Below, piece by piece: positions 11,714-27,034 of a DNA stretch of 64,000 bases. The stretch's first letter is position 1. Each line of letters begins with the position of its first letter. The stretch spans positions 14,376 through 78,375 of the forward strand of contig CAZSVP010000002.1 in the NCBI GenBank assembly GCA_964610335.1, given 5' to 3'. The notes under the pieces were generated by a model, which had not been told where the DNA came from, ran no database searches, and worked only from the letters and a program-made list of their open reading frames with translations. Made by a program: the position numbers and the translations under genes. Source of the DNA: an uncultured Candidatus Saccharibacteria bacterium (GTDB lineage: Bacteria > Patescibacteriota > Saccharimonadia > CAILAD01 > BJGX01).

Positions 11714-12224
11714 GAGTAAAAACAAATTTCTTATACATCAAGTAATTATACACAAGGACTACCGCAATCGCCGCAAATAGTGCAACATTTCGCTCGTCAA
11801 AATCACGGCTAAGTGGTAAATTTAGGCCGCTCGTGATCTGATAAGCAATTTGTGAAGGCCAAACCCAAACATCTGTTAATAGTTTTAGAATTATCGGTCT
11901 TATTACATATACTCCAAACATAGTGATTACAAAAAAGTAAACAATATGGCGAGTATCAACATGACGAGCTCTAAACGTAAACCTAGCATTGAATATATAG
12001 CTGTTTATCATAGCCAGTGTGCCTGAGATTATACCAGCAACCATCACTCCAGTTATTGTAATAACTGTTCCTGCTATAACAACTTGCCCCAACACTAAGC
12101 TCTTAGGGAGTATGGTAGCTGCCAGAACATTTAGTACAACAATATCAACAATAGTATTGAGCACACCTACAATACCAAATCGTCCGACTTGCAACGCTTC
12201 TGCCTGAGCCTTTGATTTTTTCAC
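11697..12224 (-). CDS. GtrA family membrane protein (polyprenol-P-sugar flippase-like)
   Basis: 175 aa, 4 TM, N-terminal GRFGIVGVLNTIVD GtrA signature. Confidence 0.65.
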   Translation of the reverse strand: MKKSKAQAEALQVGRFGIVGVLNTIVDIVVLNVLAATILPKSLVLGQVVIAGTVITITGVMVAGIISGTLAMINSYIFNARFTFRARHVDTRHIVYFFVITMFGVYVIRPIILKLLTDVWVWPSQIAYQITSGLNLPLSRDFDERNVALFAAIAVVLVYNYLMYKKFVFTHEEAK

Positions 12225-12277: not shown

Positions 12278-13651
12278 CTAGCCTGTATGAGTGCGATCGA
12301 TAGTGCGAAACAACATCTGATCAGCCTGGAAGAATAGCTCAATCTCGCCTGTTGGGCCGTTGCGATGTTTTCTAACGAGTATATCGGCAACGTTTTTGCG
12401 TTCACTGTCCTTTTCGTAGTAGTCCTCGCGATAAATAAACATAACTACGTCAGCATCTTGTTCGATACTACCTGACTCACGGAGGTCCGAAAGCTGCGGT
12501 ATTTTTGGAGATCTCATTTCTACAGATCGGCTTAACTGGCTCAATGCTATCACTGGTACATTGAGCTCACGTGCAAGCCCTTTGAGTCCGCGCGAAATCT
12601 CAGATATCTCTTGTACACGGTTTTCACCATAGTTCTGTCGACCACTCATCAGTTGAAGGTAGTCTATGACGATTAGGCCTAAATCATGTTCGGATTGCAA
12701 ACGACGAGCCTTAGTACGCATCTCCATTACATTTGCCATGGCTGAATCATCAATATAAAGCGGAGCTTCGGCCAGCGTGCCCATGGCCTTGTTAAGTTTT
12801 TCAAAGTCAGTATCTTCGAGATTACCAGTGCGCAACTTCCAACTATCGATCCCCGCTTCACTGGCAAGCATACGATCAATCAATTGTTCTTTGCTCATTT
12901 CTAAACTAAACACGCCTACCGGGATACCTTCGTTGACTGCCACATGTTGCGCGATGTTCATAGCAAAACTGGTTTTACCCATACTAGGACGGGCGGCCAA
13001 TATCAGCAGGTCAGACTTTTGCAGGCCAGCGAGCAAGTTGTCCAACCCAACAAATCCAGTGGGCACACCACGTAATTGTTTCTTATCCTTATGTAAACTA
13101 TCAAGTCGATCAAAACTCTCTGCCAATACTTCTTTGATGGCTGTAAAGCTCTGTTTATGGTGCTTTTGGCTTACAGCAAACAATGCCTGTTCTGCCTCGT
13201 CTAAGACTTTTTCAAGATCGGCCGCTTCATCAAATGCCATTTGACCAATCTGAGTTGCGGCCGACTGCAAACGACGCAAAGTAGCTTTTTGCGAAACTAT
13301 CTGAGCATATTGAGCTACATGGGTACTGGACGGTACACTATTGACCAACTCTGTCAGAAAACTAGAACCACCAATATCTTTGAGTTGCTTTTTCTCCTCA
13401 AGATAGTTAGATAGAGTAACTACATCAGCCGGCTGACGTTTTTCGTATAACGCCAAGATAGCCTCATAGACCAATCCATGTTTTTCAAAGTAAAAATCTT
13501 CGCTACTCACTACGTCAGCAACTTTGATAATTGAGTCTTTATCAAGCAGCAACGCACCAATCAAACTCTGCTCAGCTTGCGTATTCTGTGGCGGCAGCTT
13601 GGCAAGTTTGGGATCTACCATTTGGTTATTATTTTGTTTGGTCTTGGGCAT
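12278..13651 (-). CDS. dnaB: Replicative DNA helicase DnaB
   Basis: Walker A GARPSMGKT, DnaB N-terminal domain; start assigned to ATG (MPKTKQ) at 13651 with GGGGAGG 6 nt upstream; 22 nt overlap with dnaX end. Confidence 0.9.
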   Translation of the reverse strand: MPKTKQNNNQMVDPKLAKLPPQNTQAEQSLIGALLLDKDSIIKVADVVSSEDFYFEKHGLVYEAILALYEKRQPADVVTLSNYLEEKKQLKDIGGSSFLTELVNSVPSSTHVAQYAQIVSQKATLRRLQSAATQIGQMAFDEAADLEKVLDEAEQALFAVSQKHHKQSFTAIKEVLAESFDRLDSLHKDKKQLRGVPTGFVGLDNLLAGLQKSDLLILAARPSMGKTSFAMNIAQHVAVNEGIPVGVFSLEMSKEQLIDRMLASEAGIDSWKLRTGNLEDTDFEKLNKAMGTLAEAPLYIDDSAMANVMEMRTKARRLQSEHDLGLIVIDYLQLMSGRQNYGENRVQEISEISRGLKGLARELNVPVIALSQLSRSVEMRSPKIPQLSDLRESGSIEQDADVVMFIYREDYYEKDSERKNVADILVRKHRNGPTGEIELFFQADQMLFRTIDRTHTG

Positions 13652-15254: not shown

Positions 15255-15794
15255 CTAGCGGGTAGTACCTATGACAGCCTCTATAGCAGCCCAAGTAGCT
15301 TCACCGTGTGCTGGCAACACAACAGTCACCTCGTCACCTGGTTGCGCTCGAAAATACGTAACACTTGCATAAAGCACTCGGTACTGTTGTGGACCAATTG
15401 TAGCAACATACTGGCCATTGTCGAGTGCTAGAGTTGCTATTAGCTTCTTGCGCTCTATCGGGCCAATTTGCTTGTATATGAAGCTGCCATCTTCAGCGAT
15501 AGTTAGCTTTAGCGTATCCCCCTCTACAAGCTTGGATTTACTGGCATAGTTGGCAGGCACTGGGTAAACCTTACCATCTGGCCCAATCATATTCTGACCA
15601 TCAAATTTGCCCTCTATAATCTTACCGCCGACTGGGGCAGCTGCTGCAGTCGGACTTACTTTCTTGGGCTCAGGTAGATCCTCGGGTTTTACACCAAGTT
15701 CGTCCAGTTCTTTTTGTACTTTTACTAGATTCTGCTGTGCGGCTGCCAACTGAGCCGACAGTGCTTCAAGTTGTTGTTTGTCTTGTGTTGCCAT
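15255..15794 (-). CDS. Hypothetical protein, N-terminal coiled coil + C-terminal beta-rich domain
   Basis: 179 aa ORF with no recognisable motif. Confidence 0.45.
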   Translation of the reverse strand: MATQDKQQLEALSAQLAAAQQNLVKVQKELDELGVKPEDLPEPKKVSPTAAAAPVGGKIIEGKFDGQNMIGPDGKVYPVPANYASKSKLVEGDTLKLTIAEDGSFIYKQIGPIERKKLIATLALDNGQYVATIGPQQYRVLYASVTYFRAQPGDEVTVVLPAHGEATWAAIEAVIGTTR

Positions 15795-15885
15795 TTATTT
15801 TGCTCTTCCAATTACTTGGCTATAGTGTAGCAAAAAAGAGAATAAATGCCAAACAAAGTGCAAAAGCTTTGATACGACACTTACT

Positions 15886-17916
15886 TTAGATAATATCCAC
15901 TACTGTTCGAATGCCAATTCTTTCATCTGCACCATTATTAAAAACCTCAAACTTAGCAGACCTTTCACGAGTACTCCAATAGGCTACTGGCGTTCGGCCG
16001 TCCGATAATTGCGTGCCAGCTAATCGACACATTTTACCTGTTCCACGCCAATTATCAATAACTTGATGATCAGCTTCTAACCTTGTCAGCGCAAGTATCA
16101 ACCACTCCTCAGGAGTAATCATGTTCTCCCATTCATACTCAGTAGTGTTCAAAGCAGACTTATACGAATCTAGCCTCTTTCCTGCCGGTAGCTGAGTGCG
16201 CCCATAAAGTGTACGTGCCGTAGCATCTGTTGGTATATCGACTAGGTCTTCAACCAATACAACACGCCATGGTCGAGCCACGCTTTCACTACGTTTTCCT
16301 ACAAGATGTGGTAGATATTGAAAAGTGAGATCCGCTTCAGTGGAGCCCAAGGCGGTCATGTTTACTCCAACTGGTCCCACCGACATTGGTGAGCCAGCTG
16401 AGTCTTTTAGCACAGCAGGAATCTGTGTCAGTCGATCACTATATTTGGATGCAATTCTTGCAAGTGGCATGCCAAATGGCACGATCAACATCTCAGTAAA
16501 ACCCTGGTTAATCTTGGTCTCAAACTCTGGCAGATTAGCTTCTATAGCTAAGGCAATCTCTTCTTTTGATGGCATTACTACGCGATTACCATTCACATCT
16601 TCAAAATCACGCATTAAACCAATTAGACCACTACTCTTTAGAAGAGCTAGCTGAGCTTCGTAGCTTTTCAGAAAATCAATTTTACGCAGTTGCTCTTGAG
16701 TTTCTGTTGAAACTGGCAACATTGAAATTTCTGGGTCCACTCCACCTATGGGCCGACGGCGTTTGTTGGGATCTGGTGTGTATTGTACTAGACTCAGCAG
16801 ATTCTCAAGTTTGGTACGATCCTCATCACTTTCTACCTTGCCTAAGTAATAATAGCGAAGCGCTCTTTGAGCGGTTTCAGTAATGTCGCCGTTATAGAAG
16901 CGGGCTATAAAATTGGTAAAACGCCGTTGTTCTTCATCATCATTATACTCGAAAGGCTGTGGCTGACCGCTTGCTATGTCGCGTTCCGATAGGAGCTTCT
17001 GAGCAGACTGGTGGAACTCTGTATACCGGCTTAGGATCTCCACAATTCCAGGAATTTCGGCCAACTGTTCGGGGGTAAGTACATCTTCACGACTCTCATG
17101 CTTAACAAGTTTAGGTATATCTAGCTCTGAGCCAATACCAAACCGAGCTTTGAGACGAATATCAAATGTTTCTTGGGGCAAGTTGGAGGGTCCCTTCATA
17201 TACACCCAGCGGCGCAATTGAGCAGGATCGAGCGGCTCTCGCCCAAAGAAACCAGCGCCAGGCGGATTGGTAAGGGCAATAAGTTTGGTTTTTGATTTAT
17301 CCGCCTCAACCATCTCACCGGCATCTTCTGAAAGTGTAACTGTCCCGCCATGCTCCAAGGCATCCAGAACTTCGTGCATACGAATATTCACCTCTGGACG
17401 AGCAGCGTTATATTCGTCAAGAATTATAACTTTGACCTTACCTTCTTCCTGCATAAGGCCTCGCGTGACTGGCCCAGGAACAAATACAAACTCTGGATCA
17501 GACTTAGTTCTTTTGTTTGGGTTTGGCAAATAACGTCCCATCATAGCCTCAGGATCCGAGAGACCATTGAGATTGACATAGTGTACTTCCCAGCCAAGCT
17601 CAGCACACATTTTTTTGATAGTGGTAGACTTACCAACACTTGTGCCAGCTTCTATTAACATCGGATCGCCAGATTGCAGACATACCGCAATATCACGCTG
17701 AAACTCCAGGCTAAACTCACTCTCTATAAAGTGTTCGTCGTATATCTGACGTCTTGGTGTAGCATCGCCAGGGTTGGCTTTGGGGAGTCGGACCCCCAAA
17801 TAGGTAACATCTTCTGCTGTTTCTACTATTGCAGCCTTAGGCGTCTTCAGCTCAGCTTTTTTGGCCCGCAATCGATCACCAAGGCCTACATCTGGTACGG
17901 GCTCAGCCATGAGCAA
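15886..17916 (-). CDS. AAA_5 (MoxR/dynein-related) ATPase with ~400 aa C-terminal extension of unknown function
   Basis: Walker A GTSVGKST, Walker B VIILDEYN, sensor LIALTNP; 676 aa, about twice the size of canonical MoxR. Confidence 0.7.
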   Translation of the reverse strand: MLMAEPVPDVGLGDRLRAKKAELKTPKAAIVETAEDVTYLGVRLPKANPGDATPRRQIYDEHFIESEFSLEFQRDIAVCLQSGDPMLIEAGTSVGKSTTIKKMCAELGWEVHYVNLNGLSDPEAMMGRYLPNPNKRTKSDPEFVFVPGPVTRGLMQEEGKVKVIILDEYNAARPEVNIRMHEVLDALEHGGTVTLSEDAGEMVEADKSKTKLIALTNPPGAGFFGREPLDPAQLRRWVYMKGPSNLPQETFDIRLKARFGIGSELDIPKLVKHESREDVLTPEQLAEIPGIVEILSRYTEFHQSAQKLLSERDIASGQPQPFEYNDDEEQRRFTNFIARFYNGDITETAQRALRYYYLGKVESDEDRTKLENLLSLVQYTPDPNKRRRPIGGVDPEISMLPVSTETQEQLRKIDFLKSYEAQLALLKSSGLIGLMRDFEDVNGNRVVMPSKEEIALAIEANLPEFETKINQGFTEMLIVPFGMPLARIASKYSDRLTQIPAVLKDSAGSPMSVGPVGVNMTALGSTEADLTFQYLPHLVGKRSESVARPWRVVLVEDLVDIPTDATARTLYGRTQLPAGKRLDSYKSALNTTEYEWENMITPEEWLILALTRLEADHQVIDNWRGTGKMCRLAGTQLSDGRTPVAYWSTRERSAKFEVFNNGADERIGIRTVVDII

Positions 17917-18343
17917 GCTCCTTTACTCCCAATCTAATTGTCATGCCTAGCTTGCTAAGCCAATCGTATTCACTCTGCCAGGTGTTGAGCTGATCAGTTG
18001 TAAGTATCATGATTAATCTATGTTCGCTCAGATCACGGGTGGTTTGTCTGGTTTGTAGTGTAAGCTGGTCCACCAACTCGATACTACCAGTCTGGTACTG
18101 GCATACGAAGTCGTAGAGCTGTTTGCGATCATTTTGCTCAAGTATACTTGGCTCTATAGTAATACGACGATGTACATCAAGCGTGTGCCAAAGTGATCCT
18201 ATCGAGCGAACTGTAGCAAAACGCTGGGTAGCTAGATAGCCAATAACTTCAAGGCGCTGGGCCTCAGTGCCACACACTATCAAACCTACCTCGGTACTAC
18301 CGCCCAAATATTCTACAAACTGGTCAACTTCTGGGATTTGCAT
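17903..18343 (-). CDS. Hypothetical protein (146 aa) between VWA and AAA genes, overlapping both
   Basis: ORF overlaps AAA gene start by 14 nt; no known motif. Confidence 0.45.
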   Translation of the reverse strand: MQIPEVDQFVEYLGGSTEVGLIVCGTEAQRLEVIGYLATQRFATVRSIGSLWHTLDVHRRITIEPSILEQNDRKQLYDFVCQYQTGSIELVDQLTLQTRQTTRDLSEHRLIMILTTDQLNTWQSEYDWLSKLGMTIRLGVKELAHG

Positions 18344-18365
18344 AAGAATTATTGCTCATTATACC

Positions 18366-20456
18366 TCAAAATGTTTGCGGACGCTCGATCACATCACGCA
18401 AGACATCGGCGATAGTCTCGGCCATTTGTTCAATTGATACATCAGCTAAGCTGTTTGGATAATACCTTGCAACATGTTCAGTATATGGCCCAATACCAAG
18501 TCCTAGTATTTTTTGATTAGTAGATGAAGTAATGGTCTGTACTACTGTTTTCAAATCGTATTCTGCTCCTCCATGAATAGTGGATGGTGCTGGCTCGCCG
18601 TCTGAAAGCACAATTAAGAATTTTTCGGATTGTCGCTGACGGTCCAACCGCTCTGAAGCTTGTTGGATTGCCCATCCATCGTCGTTCCAGCTTGCATGGT
18701 AGCTTCGCACTTCATCAAGCATCTCACCAAGTGACTCTTGTTGACTTTTTTCTATGCGTCGACCGAACGGCTTAAATTCATGAAGTACTTCATTGAATCC
18801 TAAGATCTCCATATTTATACCGAGTCGGTTTAGTACTTCGGCGAGTACTACCACCGCCTTAAAGGTTTCGTTAATTTTTGCACCATTCATTGAGCCTGAC
18901 AAATCAACGAGTAGTGAGATAGCGTAGTCCTTCTCACTTGGCAGCTCGCGACGTTCCCAAGAGCGTGATTCGACAGCACTGATACCCTGAGCTTTTTCTT
19001 GCATACGTTTGCTAATATTGATCCGCCGTCCGGTATTATACCCTGTTGTATAGCGGTGTTGGCTGCGTGCCACAAAGATAGCCCGCAAGTCTTGCTCTAA
19101 ACTGTTGATGATTGGAGCAAGATCATGACGAATCTCCTCGTAAGCATTCTGACCTTCATATATGCCCTCCAGAGCTGACTTGAAATCTGTCATTACCGGA
19201 GACGGTTCGGGCGGCCTTACAGGTGAAGTTGGCGGTTCATCTGGGGTATCATTGAGGGATGGTGTTGCTGCTACTGGTAGCTCGGGCGCATCTACTGGTT
19301 CTGGAAGATCTGGTAATGGCGTAGAATCATCTTGTGAATCACCCACCCAACTACCGAGCTTGTCGGCTAACTCGCCGGCTAAATCTTCGAGTTCCTTGGC
19401 AGCCTGTTCGCGAGCAGCTTGTTTTTGCTCATCAGTTAATTCTGGCGGCGACTCTGGAGATTTGGGCTGATTTGATCCTGGTGCAGGAGTAGGGGGTTGT
19501 TCAGGTTCATTTGGCTCGCCTGTGTCTGATGATCCCTCGGGGGGAGATGGCATGTCCAGTCCAGACCCACCAGCTTCCTCATCCATATTTTGCTGCATTT
19601 GTTCTTGTAGTTGTTCAGCCCGATCTTCTACATCAGCTTCGTAGAGCGGTAGCAGATGCGGCCAGATCTGTTCTTCCATGATTCTGAGACTCAGTTCCGA
19701 GTATTTCATAATCTCGTCTTCACCACTATCAGCCTCAGCGCGGGAAGGATAAGTCCACCAGGCCTCTTGCGCTGCATCCAAACAAGCGTCCACTGCCTCA
19801 CGTACATCGTCTGGCAAGCCTTCACTAAGCTCCATTTCCTTCTCAGCCTCATCGCGACTCCACTGCTTGATCAGCTCAAAACCCGCCTGTACAAACCGTG
19901 GGGTTTGACGATCACCACTCTTCTCCTTGGCCCACTGCTCGATCTGCATATCTTGCTGATAAGCATAAACCATATCACCACGCATGGCTGGATAACTATC
20001 AGCCAAAAAGTTGTTAACTCGAGGATCTTCAACACAATTGACCATAAACATAAAGCCTGGCTGTTGGATTGTCTCTTTCATAGACTCAGGGATCCGAGTA
20101 ATCCGCCGGTGTGAGCCTTCGTGTGCTATCACAAATTTGAGGTAAGAATCCTCCTTCTCAAGTAAGTCTACTGGATCAGCAAATATCTCATTATCGCGAA
20201 AATTCCAGTACCAGCCCGCGCCTGGTTTGCTAGCCTTTACTGGAATTTTAAAATCCTTACCAATAAACTTGGCAATGGCTGACAACTCGCGCAACTTACG
20301 TTTGACCTGTTTTCTCTGCTTTTTATCGAGTTCGATAGCCTTGGCTTCAGTCGCCTCGGCATCAATTGGCTCTGAAGTAGGCCCAACACTTTCAGTAGGA
20401 GCCGACTCCGGATCAGGATTATCAGCGACGTTATACAAACGCTCTTGTTCTGGCAT
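18366..20456 (-). CDS. VWA-domain protein with N-terminal HExxH metallopeptidase-like domain (DUF2201-like) and ~200 aa acidic Pro/Glu-rich linker
   Basis: VIAHEGSHRR (HExxH); MIDAS DLSGSM...; T ... SDGEP in C-terminal VWA; low-complexity PEPS-rich middle. Confidence 0.7.
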   Translation of the reverse strand: MPEQERLYNVADNPDPESAPTESVGPTSEPIDAEATEAKAIELDKKQRKQVKRKLRELSAIAKFIGKDFKIPVKASKPGAGWYWNFRDNEIFADPVDLLEKEDSYLKFVIAHEGSHRRITRIPESMKETIQQPGFMFMVNCVEDPRVNNFLADSYPAMRGDMVYAYQQDMQIEQWAKEKSGDRQTPRFVQAGFELIKQWSRDEAEKEMELSEGLPDDVREAVDACLDAAQEAWWTYPSRAEADSGEDEIMKYSELSLRIMEEQIWPHLLPLYEADVEDRAEQLQEQMQQNMDEEAGGSGLDMPSPPEGSSDTGEPNEPEQPPTPAPGSNQPKSPESPPELTDEQKQAAREQAAKELEDLAGELADKLGSWVGDSQDDSTPLPDLPEPVDAPELPVAATPSLNDTPDEPPTSPVRPPEPSPVMTDFKSALEGIYEGQNAYEEIRHDLAPIINSLEQDLRAIFVARSQHRYTTGYNTGRRINISKRMQEKAQGISAVESRSWERRELPSEKDYAISLLVDLSGSMNGAKINETFKAVVVLAEVLNRLGINMEILGFNEVLHEFKPFGRRIEKSQQESLGEMLDEVRSYHASWNDDGWAIQQASERLDRQRQSEKFLIVLSDGEPAPSTIHGGAEYDLKTVVQTITSSTNQKILGLGIGPYTEHVARYYPNSLADVSIEQMAETIADVLRDVIERPQTF

Positions 20457-20549
20457 AAAACTATCATACCAAACTCAGTATGGGAGACATAACTGGAATC
20501 AAAAATGACCCGCATAGCGGGCCATTTTTTGTACAAGCAAACTAGTTGC

Positions 20550-24186: not shown

Positions 24187-24294
24187 TGAGACAGGCTGCG
24201 GCGAAAAGCCTATCTCGGGTCACACCCTCGAGTACTAGGACCCGAGGATGTGTCTGAGGTGGTCTGACAGGGCGAAGGCCAGTACACCTCAGGA

Positions 24295-26094
24295 TCAGGC
24301 CGTCAGTTCCGCCAACTTGGCCAACTTCTCGGCCGTGGCGGTCTCGCTGGCCATGCGTGTCAGCTCGCCGAGCGTGTCCTGCTGGTTCACGAAGCACATC
24401 GCCTTGGCACTGATCGGATAGACACTCTGCACCTCATCGAACATGAGGTTGCACAGCTTGCGGTAGCCAGGATGGCCTTGCGGTCCGGTGCGCAATTCCA
24501 GCAAGTGGAACAGCTCACGCAGACTGGTGATGAACCGGTAGCGCATGCGATAGCCCATGCACAAGGCGTACTGAGCCTCGTGCTTGTGACCGCCGCCGAA
24601 CATGTCGTTGTACAGCTCACTGGACAACTCGAAGGCTCGACGGTAGTTGGCCTCTTGCCCGGCCTCCGCCACCAACTCCGGTACCTCGTAGCCGAGATAC
24701 GGCGTGAGCGCCGGCCACTCCCACGCACTCACCATGCGATGTCGCTGCAGGTCGCGGAAGGTGCCGTAGTCGCCAACCAGCTCCCAGTCGAAGGTGGCCT
24801 CCTCGGCAGCTCGCCCCGGCCGATGGCGCCGGTTGAGGCGCTGGCCGAAGTAGAGCTGCATGAGCTGACGCTGCTTCTTGCGCGGCAGCTTGGCGACCAA
24901 CTTGCGCAGCTTGGTCATGGAGCGACCATCCACGGCGTAGAGCATGCCAGCGCACAGCTCGCGTTCGTCGCGCGGCTGGTAGTTCAGCAATGTCACCGCC
25001 GCTTCGCCCTTCTTGCTCGACTTGTCTGGCGGCAGCTCACGGAGAGCGAACTCACGCAGGCCAGCGCGGGTCTCGGCCAAGTAGTTGACGGTCATGAGCC
25101 CACGGTCCGGCTTGTCGGTCCGCTCCAGGAACTCTGGGATCACCTTGCGAGCCTCACGCAACAGCGCGGCACCCATGGCCCGGGCCTCGGGCAGCTCACG
25201 CGACAACAGCCGCATGATCAGCGCATCGAGTGCCTGAGCCGACATGGTGATGCCCACAGTCGAACGGGTTCCGACTGGCAGGATGGCGCGGGCGGCATCG
25301 CAGGCCTGAGCTCGCACCGCTCCCGGCCAGCCAGCATGCTTGGCCGGCTCCGTCGTCTTGTCCGGCCGCGGGTTGGTGAGCTTGACGTGCTCGGTGACCT
25401 CGCGCACTACCGTGGAGTAGAGATCGAAAATCTCGTCCATGGTGGACTCGTAGTACTTGAGCATGTCGGGGTCGAGCCCCGGCCGCAGGTACTTGTAGCG
25501 ACCATCAGTCTTGGTGTCGAAGTAGATGTAACGGGTGGACTGCTCGAGATACGCCGCAGCCACCCGACCCCACTCCAACTCCTTGGTCATGAGATTGCTC
25601 ACACCTTCGCAGACGAACATCACTGTGATGAGCTGCTGCACCGAATCGTCACCGAACTCGGTAACCACACGATTGATCAGCGCCGCCGCCTCTTCGGTTC
25701 GCATGCGCCCGGCGGTGAGGTCGGTGATGGCCTGGCGAAGCGTCTTCAACGCCTGTTCACACATCGGCGTGGCATCGAAGTCACCGTCGAAGAAGTTCTC
25801 CAGCGAACGAACAGCAGAAAGCAGCTCATGCTTGCGCAGTTTGGTGAGCACGGCAGCGTCCTGCACGCCAGCGAACTCCTCGAGGATGGTGACACGCAGA
25901 TCACCATCGCGTCGGCTGAGCCGAGCCATGGCAGCGGCCACCACCACGATGTTGGCCTGAGCGGTGAAGAAGTAGACCGGCCCAGTCGGATCGGTCACGA
26001 TCTCGCTCAGGTAGCGGATGCCGCGCTTTGTCGGCACCTTCTGTCCCTTGTAGATCCGGATGTACGGGTTTCTCTCTTGCAGTTTGGCGGGCAT
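24295..26094 (-). CDS. thyX: Flavin-dependent thymidylate synthase ThyX-like (Thy1 family), long ~600 aa form
   Basis: FVCEGVSNLMTKELEWGRVAAAYLEQSTRYI aligns to ThyX FxxEGVSRxxTHELVRHRxASYxxQSQRY core; second RHR (LQRHRMVS) later; ~63% GC. Confidence 0.6.
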   Translation of the reverse strand: MPAKLQERNPYIRIYKGQKVPTKRGIRYLSEIVTDPTGPVYFFTAQANIVVVAAAMARLSRRDGDLRVTILEEFAGVQDAAVLTKLRKHELLSAVRSLENFFDGDFDATPMCEQALKTLRQAITDLTAGRMRTEEAAALINRVVTEFGDDSVQQLITVMFVCEGVSNLMTKELEWGRVAAAYLEQSTRYIYFDTKTDGRYKYLRPGLDPDMLKYYESTMDEIFDLYSTVVREVTEHVKLTNPRPDKTTEPAKHAGWPGAVRAQACDAARAILPVGTRSTVGITMSAQALDALIMRLLSRELPEARAMGAALLREARKVIPEFLERTDKPDRGLMTVNYLAETRAGLREFALRELPPDKSSKKGEAAVTLLNYQPRDERELCAGMLYAVDGRSMTKLRKLVAKLPRKKQRQLMQLYFGQRLNRRHRPGRAAEEATFDWELVGDYGTFRDLQRHRMVSAWEWPALTPYLGYEVPELVAEAGQEANYRRAFELSSELYNDMFGGGHKHEAQYALCMGYRMRYRFITSLRELFHLLELRTGPQGHPGYRKLCNLMFDEVQSVYPISAKAMCFVNQQDTLGELTRMASETATAEKLAKLAELTA

Positions 26095-26117
26095 GCACCT
26101 CTCCTTTTGTTTTTGCC

Positions 26118-26387
26118 CTATTGGGGGCGCGGTTGGTCTCGATACACCGCATCGATTGCGGCATCGACTTCTGTTTGCACCTGCTCAAAGGCTGGTCGGA
26201 GCAAGTGATCGATCAGTTTCTCGCGAAACGTGGCCATATCACCTTCCTCCAACACTACCTCGACCTCAGGCTTGTGATGCGGGTGGCCGGTGTCGCGTGT
26301 AAGCATGCGTGTAGCACGCCGATACGCTTGCCACTTGCCACTCGCTTGGTCGTAACGGATATTCAGATCCAGAATAGGCGCACTCAC
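26118..26387 (-). CDS. Hypothetical protein (89 aa) between tmk and thyX
   Basis: High-GC ORF, same strand, fills gap in operon. Confidence 0.35.
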   Translation of the reverse strand: MSAPILDLNIRYDQASGKWQAYRRATRMLTRDTGHPHHKPEVEVVLEEGDMATFREKLIDHLLRPAFEQVQTEVDAAIDAVYRDQPRPQ

Positions 26388-26398
26388 GCTGCCCCCTT

Positions 26399-27034
26399 TC
26401 AGGCAAGCAAAGGCTCAATATGAGCCAAGATGGATCGTTCGACTTCTTCCACACTGCCGCGACCATCGATGAACACGAATTGGCCAGGCAACCCCTTGGT
26501 AGCCTCGACACGGAAGCCCTCGACGAGTCTAGTATGGAATTCTTCTTTCTCCTGCTCGAAACGGTCGAGCTCGCCGCCTCGTGCGCTGACACGAGCCATC
26601 GAATCAGCAAGGTCGACATCCAGCACAAAGATGCGATGAGGGAACAACTCGTTTACCACCAAGCTGCAGACTGAGCGCACATAGTCGGCGCCGAGCCCAC
26701 GGGCATGGCCTTGGTAGACACAGTTGCTGACATAGCTGCGATCGGAGACCACTGGTCGTCCTGATTGCAGCGCTGGCAACACCACCTCGTGCAGATGCTG
26801 AACGCGATCGGCATTGAACAACAGCACTTCGGCCATGGGCTCGAGTTCGCCGGTAGCTGGATCGAGCAAGATCTGTCGAACCATACCGCCAAGCGGTGTG
26901 CCACCTGGCTCACGAGTCAGCACAGCGCCAATTCGATCGGCGAGGAGTCGGGCTTGCGTGGACTTGCCACAACCCTCGACACCCTCGAATGCAATGTAGA
27001 GCGGTTGGGGCACAGCCCTCACCTCCTTTGTCAA
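26399..27034 (-). CDS. tmk: Thymidylate kinase
   Basis: LYIAFEGVEGCGKSTQ P-loop, DRY-like motif; ~63% GC. Confidence 0.85.
   Translation of the reverse strand: MTKEVRAVPQPLYIAFEGVEGCGKSTQARLLADRIGAVLTREPGGTPLGGMVRQILLDPATGELEPMAEVLLFNADRVQHLHEVVLPALQSGRPVVSDRSYVSNCVYQGHARGLGADYVRSVCSLVVNELFPHRIFVLDVDLADSMARVSARGGELDRFEQEKEEFHTRLVEGFRVEATKGLPGQFVFIDGRGSVEEVERSILAHIEPLLA

Follow-up and report, generated by a model that had tools for sequence, protein, structure and literature searches.

What does a bacterium belonging to the candidate phyla radiation (CPR) do with an operon that places a MoxR-like ATPase beside a protein combining a von Willebrand factor A (VWA) domain with a metallopeptidase-like domain? 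We addressed this question for three genes at positions 15886–20456 of a 64,000-nucleotide stretch, hereafter the window, from an uncultured Candidatus Saccharibacteria bacterium (GenBank assembly GCA_964610335.1, contig CAZSVP010000002.1, positions 14,376 to 78,375 of the forward strand). We consider it reasonably probable that the locus is a member of a three-gene CPR module whose ATPase belongs to the family described as the commonest target of diversity-generating retroelements (DGRs) in these bacteria, and that it is one of the members lacking a DGR.

Three minus-strand open reading frames (ORFs), of 696, 146 and 676 aa (the last from a TTG start), were confirmed at this site from the ORF list and the window, and all motifs quoted for them in the initial annotation appear on translation. 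Because the homologues of each, numbering dozens to hundreds, keep this gene order, comparison identifies them as real genes rather than chance ORFs. Scanning one genome per GTDB species yielded 76 loci; ORFs were called in all loci and searched with profiles from five seed loci. The loci span at least a dozen CPR classes (Saccharibacteria, Paceibacteria, Doudna-, Gottesman-, Zambryski-, Berkel-, Peregrini-, Peri-, Dojka-, Levy-, Magasanik- and Moranii-bacteria), and the order VWA–small–AAA is strict in 55 of the 67 testable loci, most exceptions consisting of one extra inserted gene. When the ORFs of 77 loci were clustered all against all, the recurrent families were the AAA ATPase (77 loci), the small protein (74), the VWA protein (73), a reverse transcriptase (RT; 38) and bAvd (30); a serine recombinase followed (10), and all others occurred in at most five loci. 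Adjacent, co-oriented genes for an AAA_5 ATPase and a VWA protein with an intact MIDAS are retained in 73 of the 77 loci, and the initial description of a MoxR-like ATPase and VWA/MIDAS pair accompanied by a third small gene is borne out by Pfam and by this conservation. The module is self-contained, without a conserved client gene, because only the AAA, small, VWA, RT and bAvd families recur: no gene for a metalloenzyme, for CobN or for the corrin pathway is repeatedly found near it in the 77 loci. The remark that no metalloenzyme client lies adjacent holds for the window and for its relatives alike, and the same neighbourhoods, compared with characterised maturation pairs and their client genes in mind, gave no conserved client.

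The link to DGRs comes from the relatives. Genes for bAvd and RVT_1 lie just downstream of the ATPase gene in the first two neighbourhoods examined, and Avd or RT is found within 5 kb downstream in 37 of 54 loci that are non-redundant and have a complete ATPase gene and at least 2.5 kb of downstream sequence; the other 17, about one third, are DGR-less. In 37 loci a template repeat (TR) matches the last 54–127 nt of the ATPase gene (mostly ~115–125 nt), which constitute the variable repeat (VR), and 576 of the 598 mismatches between VR and TR fall at template adenines, the signature of DGR mutagenic retrohoming. In locus L002, for example, a repeat upstream of bAvd shares 89% identity with the final 118 nt of the ATPase gene, and a stand-alone paralogue of 327 aa, corresponding to the C-terminal half of the ATPase, matches that repeat too. 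Several database proteins are identical except at VR positions, and we interpret these as natural products of diversification.

The window ATPase falls within this group. Its subfamily (P0001–P0011) shares the whole C-terminal half, with 40–47% full-length identity (95% for P0001). Judged by their sequences, the two closest homologues from other species are active DGR targets, each with the VR followed by TR, bAvd and RT: in L004, a Saccharibacteria metagenome-assembled genome (MAG) at 46% identity, the VR (11956–12077) and TR (12426–12547) differ by ten mismatches, nine of them at A, and in L088 (47% identity) 19 of 21 mismatches are at A. Full-length homology thus places the window ATPase in the CPR AAA-CLec family of DGR targets, and its C-terminus, first described as lacking known motifs, turns out to be a homologue of the variable region of the commonest CPR DGR target. 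The parts of the locus are listed below.

18366..20456, minus strand: gene 1, encoding the 696-aa protein with an HExxH domain, an acidic linker and a CobT_C/VWA domain (ORF, Pfam and PDB matches).
19587..20327, minus strand: zincin-like domain, aa 44–290 of gene 1 (HEGSH at 20109–20123, E143 at 20028–20030).
19137..19586, minus strand: acidic Pro-rich linker, aa 291–440 of gene 1, probably disordered (composition).
18387..18920, minus strand: VWA domain of gene 1 (DLSGS, D518-x-S520-x-S522, at 18891–18905; SDG, with D619, at 18597–18605).
17903..18343, minus strand: gene 2, encoding the 146-aa small protein with a YDFxxQYPTGQ motif, between the VWA and ATPase genes.
15886..17910, minus strand: gene 3, encoding the AAA_5 ATPase of 674 aa (676 aa from TTG 17916; Pfam AAA_5).
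16747..17829, minus strand: conserved core of the ATPase, aa ~30–390, with a YLGVxLxK motif, the AAA+ domain and a conserved helical region (homologue alignment).
17623–17646, 17407–17424 and 17263–17274, minus strand: ATPase motifs Walker A (GTSVGKST), Walker B (ILDEYN) and sensor 1 (LTNP), respectively (translation).
17206–17259, minus strand: GREPLDPAQLRRW segment of the ATPase core (homologue alignment).
15889..16719, minus strand: C-terminal variable module of the ATPase, aa 400–676, with an alpha/beta subdomain and then a probable C-type-lectin/FGE-like domain (AlphaFold2 model).
15889..16011, minus strand: position equivalent to the DGR variable repeat, the last ~41 ATPase codons (alignment with the L004 VR/TR pair).

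The gene boundaries differ slightly from those first annotated. The small gene had been said to overlap both neighbours; it overlaps the ATPase gene only, and a gap of 22 nt (18344–18365) separates it from gene 1. An ORF of 676 codons does exist for the ATPase from the TTG, but the most likely start is ATG 17910, giving 674 aa and an 8-nt overlap with gene 2, because AAAGGAG precedes this codon and because the 95%-identical P0001 and the conspecific gene calls begin there. Gene 2 is probably translationally coupled to the ATPase gene.

In the window itself the retroelement is missing. No second copy of 15801–16500, and thus no template repeat, is present in the 64 kb, and tblastn found no RT or Avd there, a result that stays compatible with a DGR acting in trans from outside the window. 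Four conspecific contigs share the same DGR-less synteny, and in the conspecific strains no TR, Avd or RT occurs within 10 kb. The segment at 15889–16011 also has no counterpart to the GC-rich 3′ end common to the VR and TR of L004. The VR-equivalent segment is in this sense ‘frozen’, and the locus is a DGR-less member of the family rather than an active DGR target.

Variation within the species has another source. The conspecific strains (L083, L085–L087) combine two haplotypes in mosaic fashion, recombination breakpoints lying within the operon, and divergence between the haplotypes peaks in the C-terminal domain of the ATPase (15886–16350) and in the acidic linker of the VWA protein (19137–19586). 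DGR-driven hypervariation of the tail was considered for the window against the 95%-identical P0001 and rejected: the differences show no adenine bias, 46 of 85 lie at third codon positions, and they form a recombination mosaic. Tail variation between strains is allele exchange and not retrohoming, since the differences lack adenine bias and are rich in third-position changes. Between the two haplotypes, aa 521–674 of the tail have a dN of 0.130, 26 times that of the core, and a dN/dS of 0.23.

The module also occurs in several variant arrangements among the relatives. Stand-alone paralogues of the ATPase C-terminal half, 285–365 aa long, are frequent and either follow the ATPase gene or separate the VWA gene from the small gene in 14 of 69 loci (L001 12145–13206, L002 12467–13450, L058 5042–5899, L067 8354–9439, L076 8372–9469, L078 5662–6681); in several loci the template repeat is matched by the 3′ end of the paralogue as well, which is then a second DGR target. 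The small gene and ATPase gene are tandemly duplicated as a pair after a single VWA gene in L010 (9528–14670) and L079 (6779–11555), the copies in L079 looking fragmented, and in L068 (1–900, 5061–5353) tandem repeats with a period of ~99 nt are common to the 3′ part of the ATPase gene and the region upstream of the VWA gene. The operon, otherwise restricted to CPR, was furthermore recovered from GTDB MAGs labelled Micrarchaeota, Anaerolineaceae, Gammaproteobacteria, Pseudomonadales, Bdellovibrionales and Geobacteraceae (non-CPR-labelled loci L013, L022, L028, L031, L040, L044, L045, L059, L061, L065, L068, L069, L074 and L082); these contigs are probably mis-binned or mis-labelled.

What the module might do is best approached from its proteins, beginning with the ATPase. 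Pfam assigns it AAA_5 (1.9e-8), and its sequence matches in the PDB are midasin AAA modules (2e-12), CobS (1e-3) and NorQ (3e-3). The homologues (n = 396) are 640–790 aa long, and every one with a named organism is from Patescibacteria/CPR. Walker A, Walker B, sensor 1 and the RR motif/GREPLDPAQLRRW segment are invariant in the family, and motif conservation thus points to a catalytically intact AAA+ protein of the MoxR clade, midasin/CobS-like in type. The N-terminal half is ~55% identical across CPR classes, and the best-conserved part of the family, aa ~30–390, reaches beyond the AAA_5 core. This revises the ~400-aa C-terminal extension of the initial annotation: some 150 aa of it (aa ~240–390) are the most conserved in the family, and only aa ~400–676 are variable. 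Between strain haplotypes, aa 1–395 have a dN of 0.005 and a dN/dS of 0.03.

Such constraint invites the idea of a housekeeping assembly or remodelling factor, a split prokaryotic midasin acting on a large complex such as the ribosome, with the HExxH domain processing a subunit. The idea draws on the midasin AAA modules and the midasin MIDAS (6e-5) as best solved-structure matches, on the ~55% identity and low dN/dS of the core, on the position of the operon after rplJ-rplL in this species with no minus-strand terminator-like site between, and on the ribosomal protein genes reported inside some CPR DGR cassettes (Wu 2018, PMC5758913). A scan of 20457–20549, between rplL and the VWA gene, gave no clear outline of the transcription unit: it found no minus-strand terminator-like and no strong promoter-like site. 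In this species rplJ-rplL and the module may share a transcript. The adjacency to dnaX and rplL that the initial annotation had pointed out is real here and is kept, as rplJL and dnaX, in the conspecific strains (L085–L087), but it is absent from other species. The midasin similarity is moreover generic to the AAA_5 clade, CobS and NorQ matching as well, and a hypervariable, retroelement-rewritten binding domain is hard to square with a fixed client. We regard a midasin-like housekeeping role as unlikely because the binding domain is hypervariable and because genomic context and copy number vary, the latter through tandem duplicates and stand-alone tail paralogues.

The variable tail would be the recognition part of the ATPase. 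An AlphaFold2 model of the C-terminal 277 aa (pLDDT 83, pTM 0.86) has an alpha/beta subdomain followed by a beta-rich domain. Foldseek against the PDB placed EgtB-IV on top, a weak match (E = 1); we take the C-terminal domain of EgtB-IV to be FGE-like. A DUF1566 protein is among the top viral fold matches, likewise weak (TMt 0.55, prob 0.2), and the sole Pfam family touched by the tails of relatives is FGE-sulfatase (E = 0.036 in 2 of 16 sequences). Weak as they are, these three matches agree in direction. A PDB profile search with the alignment of the VR domain came back empty, and hhalign between tail subfamilies gave E = 1e-3 at a probability of 21%. A C-type-lectin (CLec)/FGE-like fold is, on the model, likely but weakly supported.

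The partner encoded by gene 1 joins three parts. At its C-terminus, Pfam recognises CobT_C (6.8e-16) and VWA (8e-9), and the PDB sequence matches are CobT (21vt, 9uka) and the midasin MIDAS domain 6qt8 (6e-5); the MIDAS is complete, with D518, S522 and D619 invariant in 68 homologues. The middle is the Pro/Glu/Ser-rich acidic linker recognised in the initial annotation, confirmed by its composition (aa ~286–440, with 28 Pro, 20 Glu, 14 Asp and 14 Ser among 155 residues), and no other part of gene 1 differs as much between strains, with 49 differences per 250 nt between the two haplotypes. In this it resembles the D/E-rich stretch in front of the MIDAS domain of midasin, and also the acidic central part of CobT. 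A word-index homologue search with this protein returned 24 matches only, probably because low-complexity linker words swamped the candidates.

At the N-terminus lies the domain first described as HExxH metallopeptidase-like, which proves to be conserved and zincin-like. In alignments of 68, 45 and 19 sequences, H112, E113 and H116 are at least 90% conserved and E143, a candidate for the third zinc ligand, is invariant; R146 and N149 are invariant as well. No Pfam or PDB sequence family matched the N-terminal ~250 aa, including in a PDB profile search. The AlphaFold2 model (pLDDT 84, pTM 0.79) shows three strands, an HExxH helix (103–119) and a helix bearing E143 (135–154), and its top Foldseek matches in the PDB are the minigluzincins selecase, abylysin and jannalysin (prob 0.9–1.0, weak E of 0.04–0.2), followed by the M1 enzyme LTA4H; across the zincin-like top matches including LTA4H, E ranges from 0.04 to 0.5. 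The domain is thus modelled as a conserved minigluzincin-like fold, with putative zinc binding and putative peptidase activity. A profile of the domain found 569 cluster representatives among 1.84 billion; in the full-length matches listed it is N-terminal in proteins of 640–960 aa, and a C-terminal VWA is recognisable in six of the ten distant matches scanned. From these sequences, the zincin-like domain appears to be tied to the architecture of a VWA fusion.

The CobT and CobS matches raise the possibility of a genuine cobaltochelatase CobS/CobT or another metal-insertion chaperone pair. Besides Pfam CobT_C and the PDB matches to both proteins, the labels pointing this way are weak NCBIfam hits to CobT and CobS and the PHROG annotations ‘CobT’ and ‘porphyrin biosynthesis’. 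The NCBIfam scores (TIGR01650, TIGR01651) are nonetheless far below their cut-offs (39.4 against 759 bits for CobT, 21.1 against 558.6 for CobS), only the VWA and AAA cores match, and neither CobN nor any other conserved neighbour accompanies the module. To our knowledge, an N-terminal zincin domain and a C-terminal variable tail are not part of CobT and CobS. A cobaltochelatase is effectively refuted, and we give the metal-insertion explanation almost no credence. The module is likewise, as initially judged, distinct from RavA/ViaA, NorQ/NorD and CbbQ/CbbO.

Phages offer another parallel. A similar two-protein architecture, a MoxR AAA+ protein and a vWA protein with an N-terminal metallopeptidase, is described from group 2.2 jumbo phages and proposed for virion assembly in the available text of Iyer 2021 (PMC7824862), and the module might by extension be an assembly chaperone of a prophage or mobile element. 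It matches phrog_1576 (2e-30) and phrog_249 (2e-11), 128 phage records match the VWA part, and in 10 of 77 loci (for example L002, 19215–20975) the module has a serine recombinase gene within 10 kb. The phage matches cover aa 433–690, the VWA part, or in one case aa 303–690, and never reach the zincin domain; the ATPase matches two haloarchaeal virus records only; no phage structural genes recur beside the module; and the neighbourhood in the window is chromosomal housekeeping, identical in the conspecific strains. A role of this kind is very improbable.

The small protein and its homologues are 135–150 aa long and share the YDFxxQYPTGQ motif. Neither it nor 45 homologues matched Pfam, a profile search of the PDB gave no match, an hhalign comparison with the VWA protein as a test for a duplicated domain gave nothing, and a word-index search retrieved only a 97%-identical conspecific protein. 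Its co-occurrence with the other two genes is observed, and we propose that the module always requires it, as a third subunit or an adaptor. Signal peptides and membrane helices are absent from all three proteins (maximum KD19 hydropathy ≤1.45, no signal-like N-termini); the system is therefore presumably cytoplasmic and its ligand intracellular.

We tentatively combine these parts into a single machine, a possibility that we hold more doubtful than family membership: an AAA+ ring with recognition tails that a retroelement can rewrite, and a MIDAS partner carrying a zincin protease, of which the window copy would be a chromosomally domesticated version of fixed specificity. By analogy with better-known relatives, the ATPase would form a hexameric ring, each subunit carrying a C-terminal ligand-binding domain in the region that is the DGR variable region of relatives. 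The 696-aa partner would dock its MIDAS/VWA domain on the ring, with the long acidic tether as the link, in the way that CobT docks on CobS and the midasin MIDAS on its own ring, and would bring the gluzincin-like HExxH domain, a putative peptidase, to it. The tails might then capture an intracellular ligand, and ATP hydrolysis might couple capture to remodelling or cleavage, or to activation of the zincin, making the module a target-specific remodeller or protease or a sensor-effector. Where a DGR is attached, target specificity would be rewritten by mutagenic retrohoming; in this genome it would be fixed, apart from ordinary mutation and the exchange of alleles among strains.

A special case of this single machine, compatible with it and just as tentative, is an anti-phage or conflict sensor-effector, in which an invader protein in the cytoplasm would be sensed by the variable tail and signalled onward by the ATPase, with the VWA-tethered zincin as the effector that is released or activated. 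Diversification of an intracellular binding domain by a DGR fits an arms race. Similar logic has been proposed for MoxR-associated DGR targets and was suggested for the CPR AAA-CLec family by Doré 2024 (PMC10907252), with the tail as a sensor whose signal the ATPase may pass on, and ternary MoxR-vWA systems are described by Kaur 2020 (PMC7159879), their third component being VMAP, iSTAND, FtsH or a beta-propeller. The genomic context is variable and sometimes includes recombinases, and in other loci, among them the P0008 contig, transposase, conjugation/type IV secretion system, HicAB, HNH, PLD and Schlafen-like genes lie nearby, a hint that mobile or defence-island-like regions sometimes carry the module. 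The kinship with conflict systems raised in the initial annotation nevertheless found little to build on. None of the third components of the ternary systems is present, and the families it had named, DUF2201_N, CoxE-like and VMAP, gave no match in Pfam or NCBIfam beyond a sub-threshold VWA_CoxE hit (0.031) and, among 45 N-terminal domains, one to VMAP-M5 (E = 0.2). The nearest characterised relatives are CobS/CobT and midasin, and not the CoxD/CoxE-derived VMAP systems, in which the DGR targets the vWA protein and not the ATPase. The core is also unusually conserved for a defence gene, and the window genes sit among housekeeping genes with no toxin-like effector there.

Several results weigh against our explanation of the locus as a whole or narrow it. 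As no DGR accompanies the window copy, the ‘programmable’ aspect falls away here. PADLOC, run on all proteins, gave insignificant matches only, lending no support to a defence role or to the defence association that the initial annotation had considered. The identity of the core across CPR classes would also fit a housekeeping role. Of the two fold assignments, that of the zincin is weak by E-value (0.04), and that of the CLec domain is weak throughout (Foldseek E ~1, Pfam E 0.036, the empty PDB profile search and the 21% of hhalign). Ring formation, docking of the VWA domain, peptidase activity and the nature of the ligand are all argued from analogy.

The immediate surroundings in this genome add some detail. 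The ATPase stop codon is 91 nt from the next gene, a 179-aa gene at 15255–15794 whose product matches no family and has a coiled-coil N-terminal and a beta-rich C-terminal part. This gene is kept in the conspecific strains but does not belong to the module in other species. Farther away, the window contains a GC-rich island at 24200–27000 (GC 0.56–0.69, against 0.41–0.50 elsewhere) with a 599-aa ThyX-like gene at 24295–26094 (Pfam Thy1, 9e-38); synteny with L085 adds genes for thymidylate kinase, NUDIX and dCTP deaminase. The island looks like a horizontally acquired block of nucleotide metabolism from a high-GC donor.

Several consequences follow for the study of DGRs in CPR. DGRs make up ~80% of CPR reverse transcriptases according to a review (PMC8632793), and CPR DGR targets are noted to be without recognisable domains (Roux 2021). 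The commonest target of these abundant elements is one subunit of a conserved, self-contained three-gene module, and a vague idea of ‘host attachment’ can give way to hypotheses open to test, namely that the proteins form a complex, that remodelling or cleavage depends on ATP and that the ligand is intracellular. If the single-machine proposal is true, the module would be a ‘programmable’ protein remodeller or protease and would provide the first mechanistic frame for DGR function in CPR. The present locus ties into the puzzle of CPR DGRs, yet it is less exotic, a DGR-less member of a widespread family; such copies have a fixed sequence, which makes both their expression and their use in a ligand search easier. 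For annotation, the genes of the module should not be named CobS/CobT or generic MoxR.

Comparison with known systems sets the module apart. Like CobS/CobT (PDB 9ujv, 9uka, 21vt), it pairs a MoxR-clade AAA_5 ATPase with a separate CobT_C-type VWA/MIDAS subunit that has an acidic linker before the VWA; unlike CobS/CobT, it comes without CobN, scores far below the equivalog thresholds and has an extra zincin domain, a small subunit and a ~430-aa C-terminal region on the ATPase. Midasin/Rea1 supplies the best PDB sequence matches of the ATPase and the MIDAS, and shares the logic of an AAA ring, an acidic tether and a MIDAS, but fuses six AAA modules where the present ATPase has one per polypeptide and the parts are split over three proteins, and the window module has a peptidase-like domain and a variable tail in addition. 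The minigluzincins (PDB 4qhf–4qhj, 4jiu, 4jix) are the top structural neighbours of the zincin-like model and likewise have an HExxH helix followed by a Glu-bearing helix, but the scores are weak (E 0.04–0.2, TM ≤0.5 on target), and the window domain, at ~250 aa, has extra helices and is fused to the linker and VWA.

Nearest in kind is the CPR AAA-CLec family itself. In CPR, the protein type most often targeted by DGRs is ‘AAA ATPase-CLec’ (Paul 2017, Nat Microbiol, cited in the available text of Doré 2024, PMC10907252), and CPR DGR targets of VR class UVR4/category g1 match the Midasin AAA domain, with the VR fold left unassigned (Wu 2018, PMC5758913). The window ATPase is, by homology, of the same protein family, with an N-terminal midasin/MoxR-type AAA_5 and, in its closest relatives, a VR at the same C-terminal position; it differs in having neither TR, Avd and RT nor the GC-rich VR 3′ end of L004. 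The ATPase component is thus already in the literature, whereas the operon-level partnership with a VWA-zincin and a small protein is not mentioned in the DGR and MoxR literature surveyed, of which Paul 2017, represented there by citation, may already describe part of the operon. The jumbo-phage pair has the same architecture of metallopeptidase-vWA protein and MoxR ATPase, but no sequence similarity to its peptidase domain is detectable, and the available text on that pair mentions neither a small third gene nor a variable tail. The MoxR-vWA-VMAP systems of multicellular bacteria (PMC7159879, PMC10907252) resemble the module in having three components, MoxR, vWA and a third protein, a DGR-diversified CLec/FGS domain in many members and a peptidase as possible effector; in them the DGR-targeted domain is on the vWA protein, whereas here it is on the ATPase, with the peptidase fused to the vWA protein, an orphan third protein of 135–150 aa and CPR hosts. 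Taken together, the module differs from CobS/CobT, midasin, the jumbo-phage pair and the VMAP systems alike in carrying its variable domain on the ATPase, its peptidase domain on the VWA protein and an orphan small gene as its third member.

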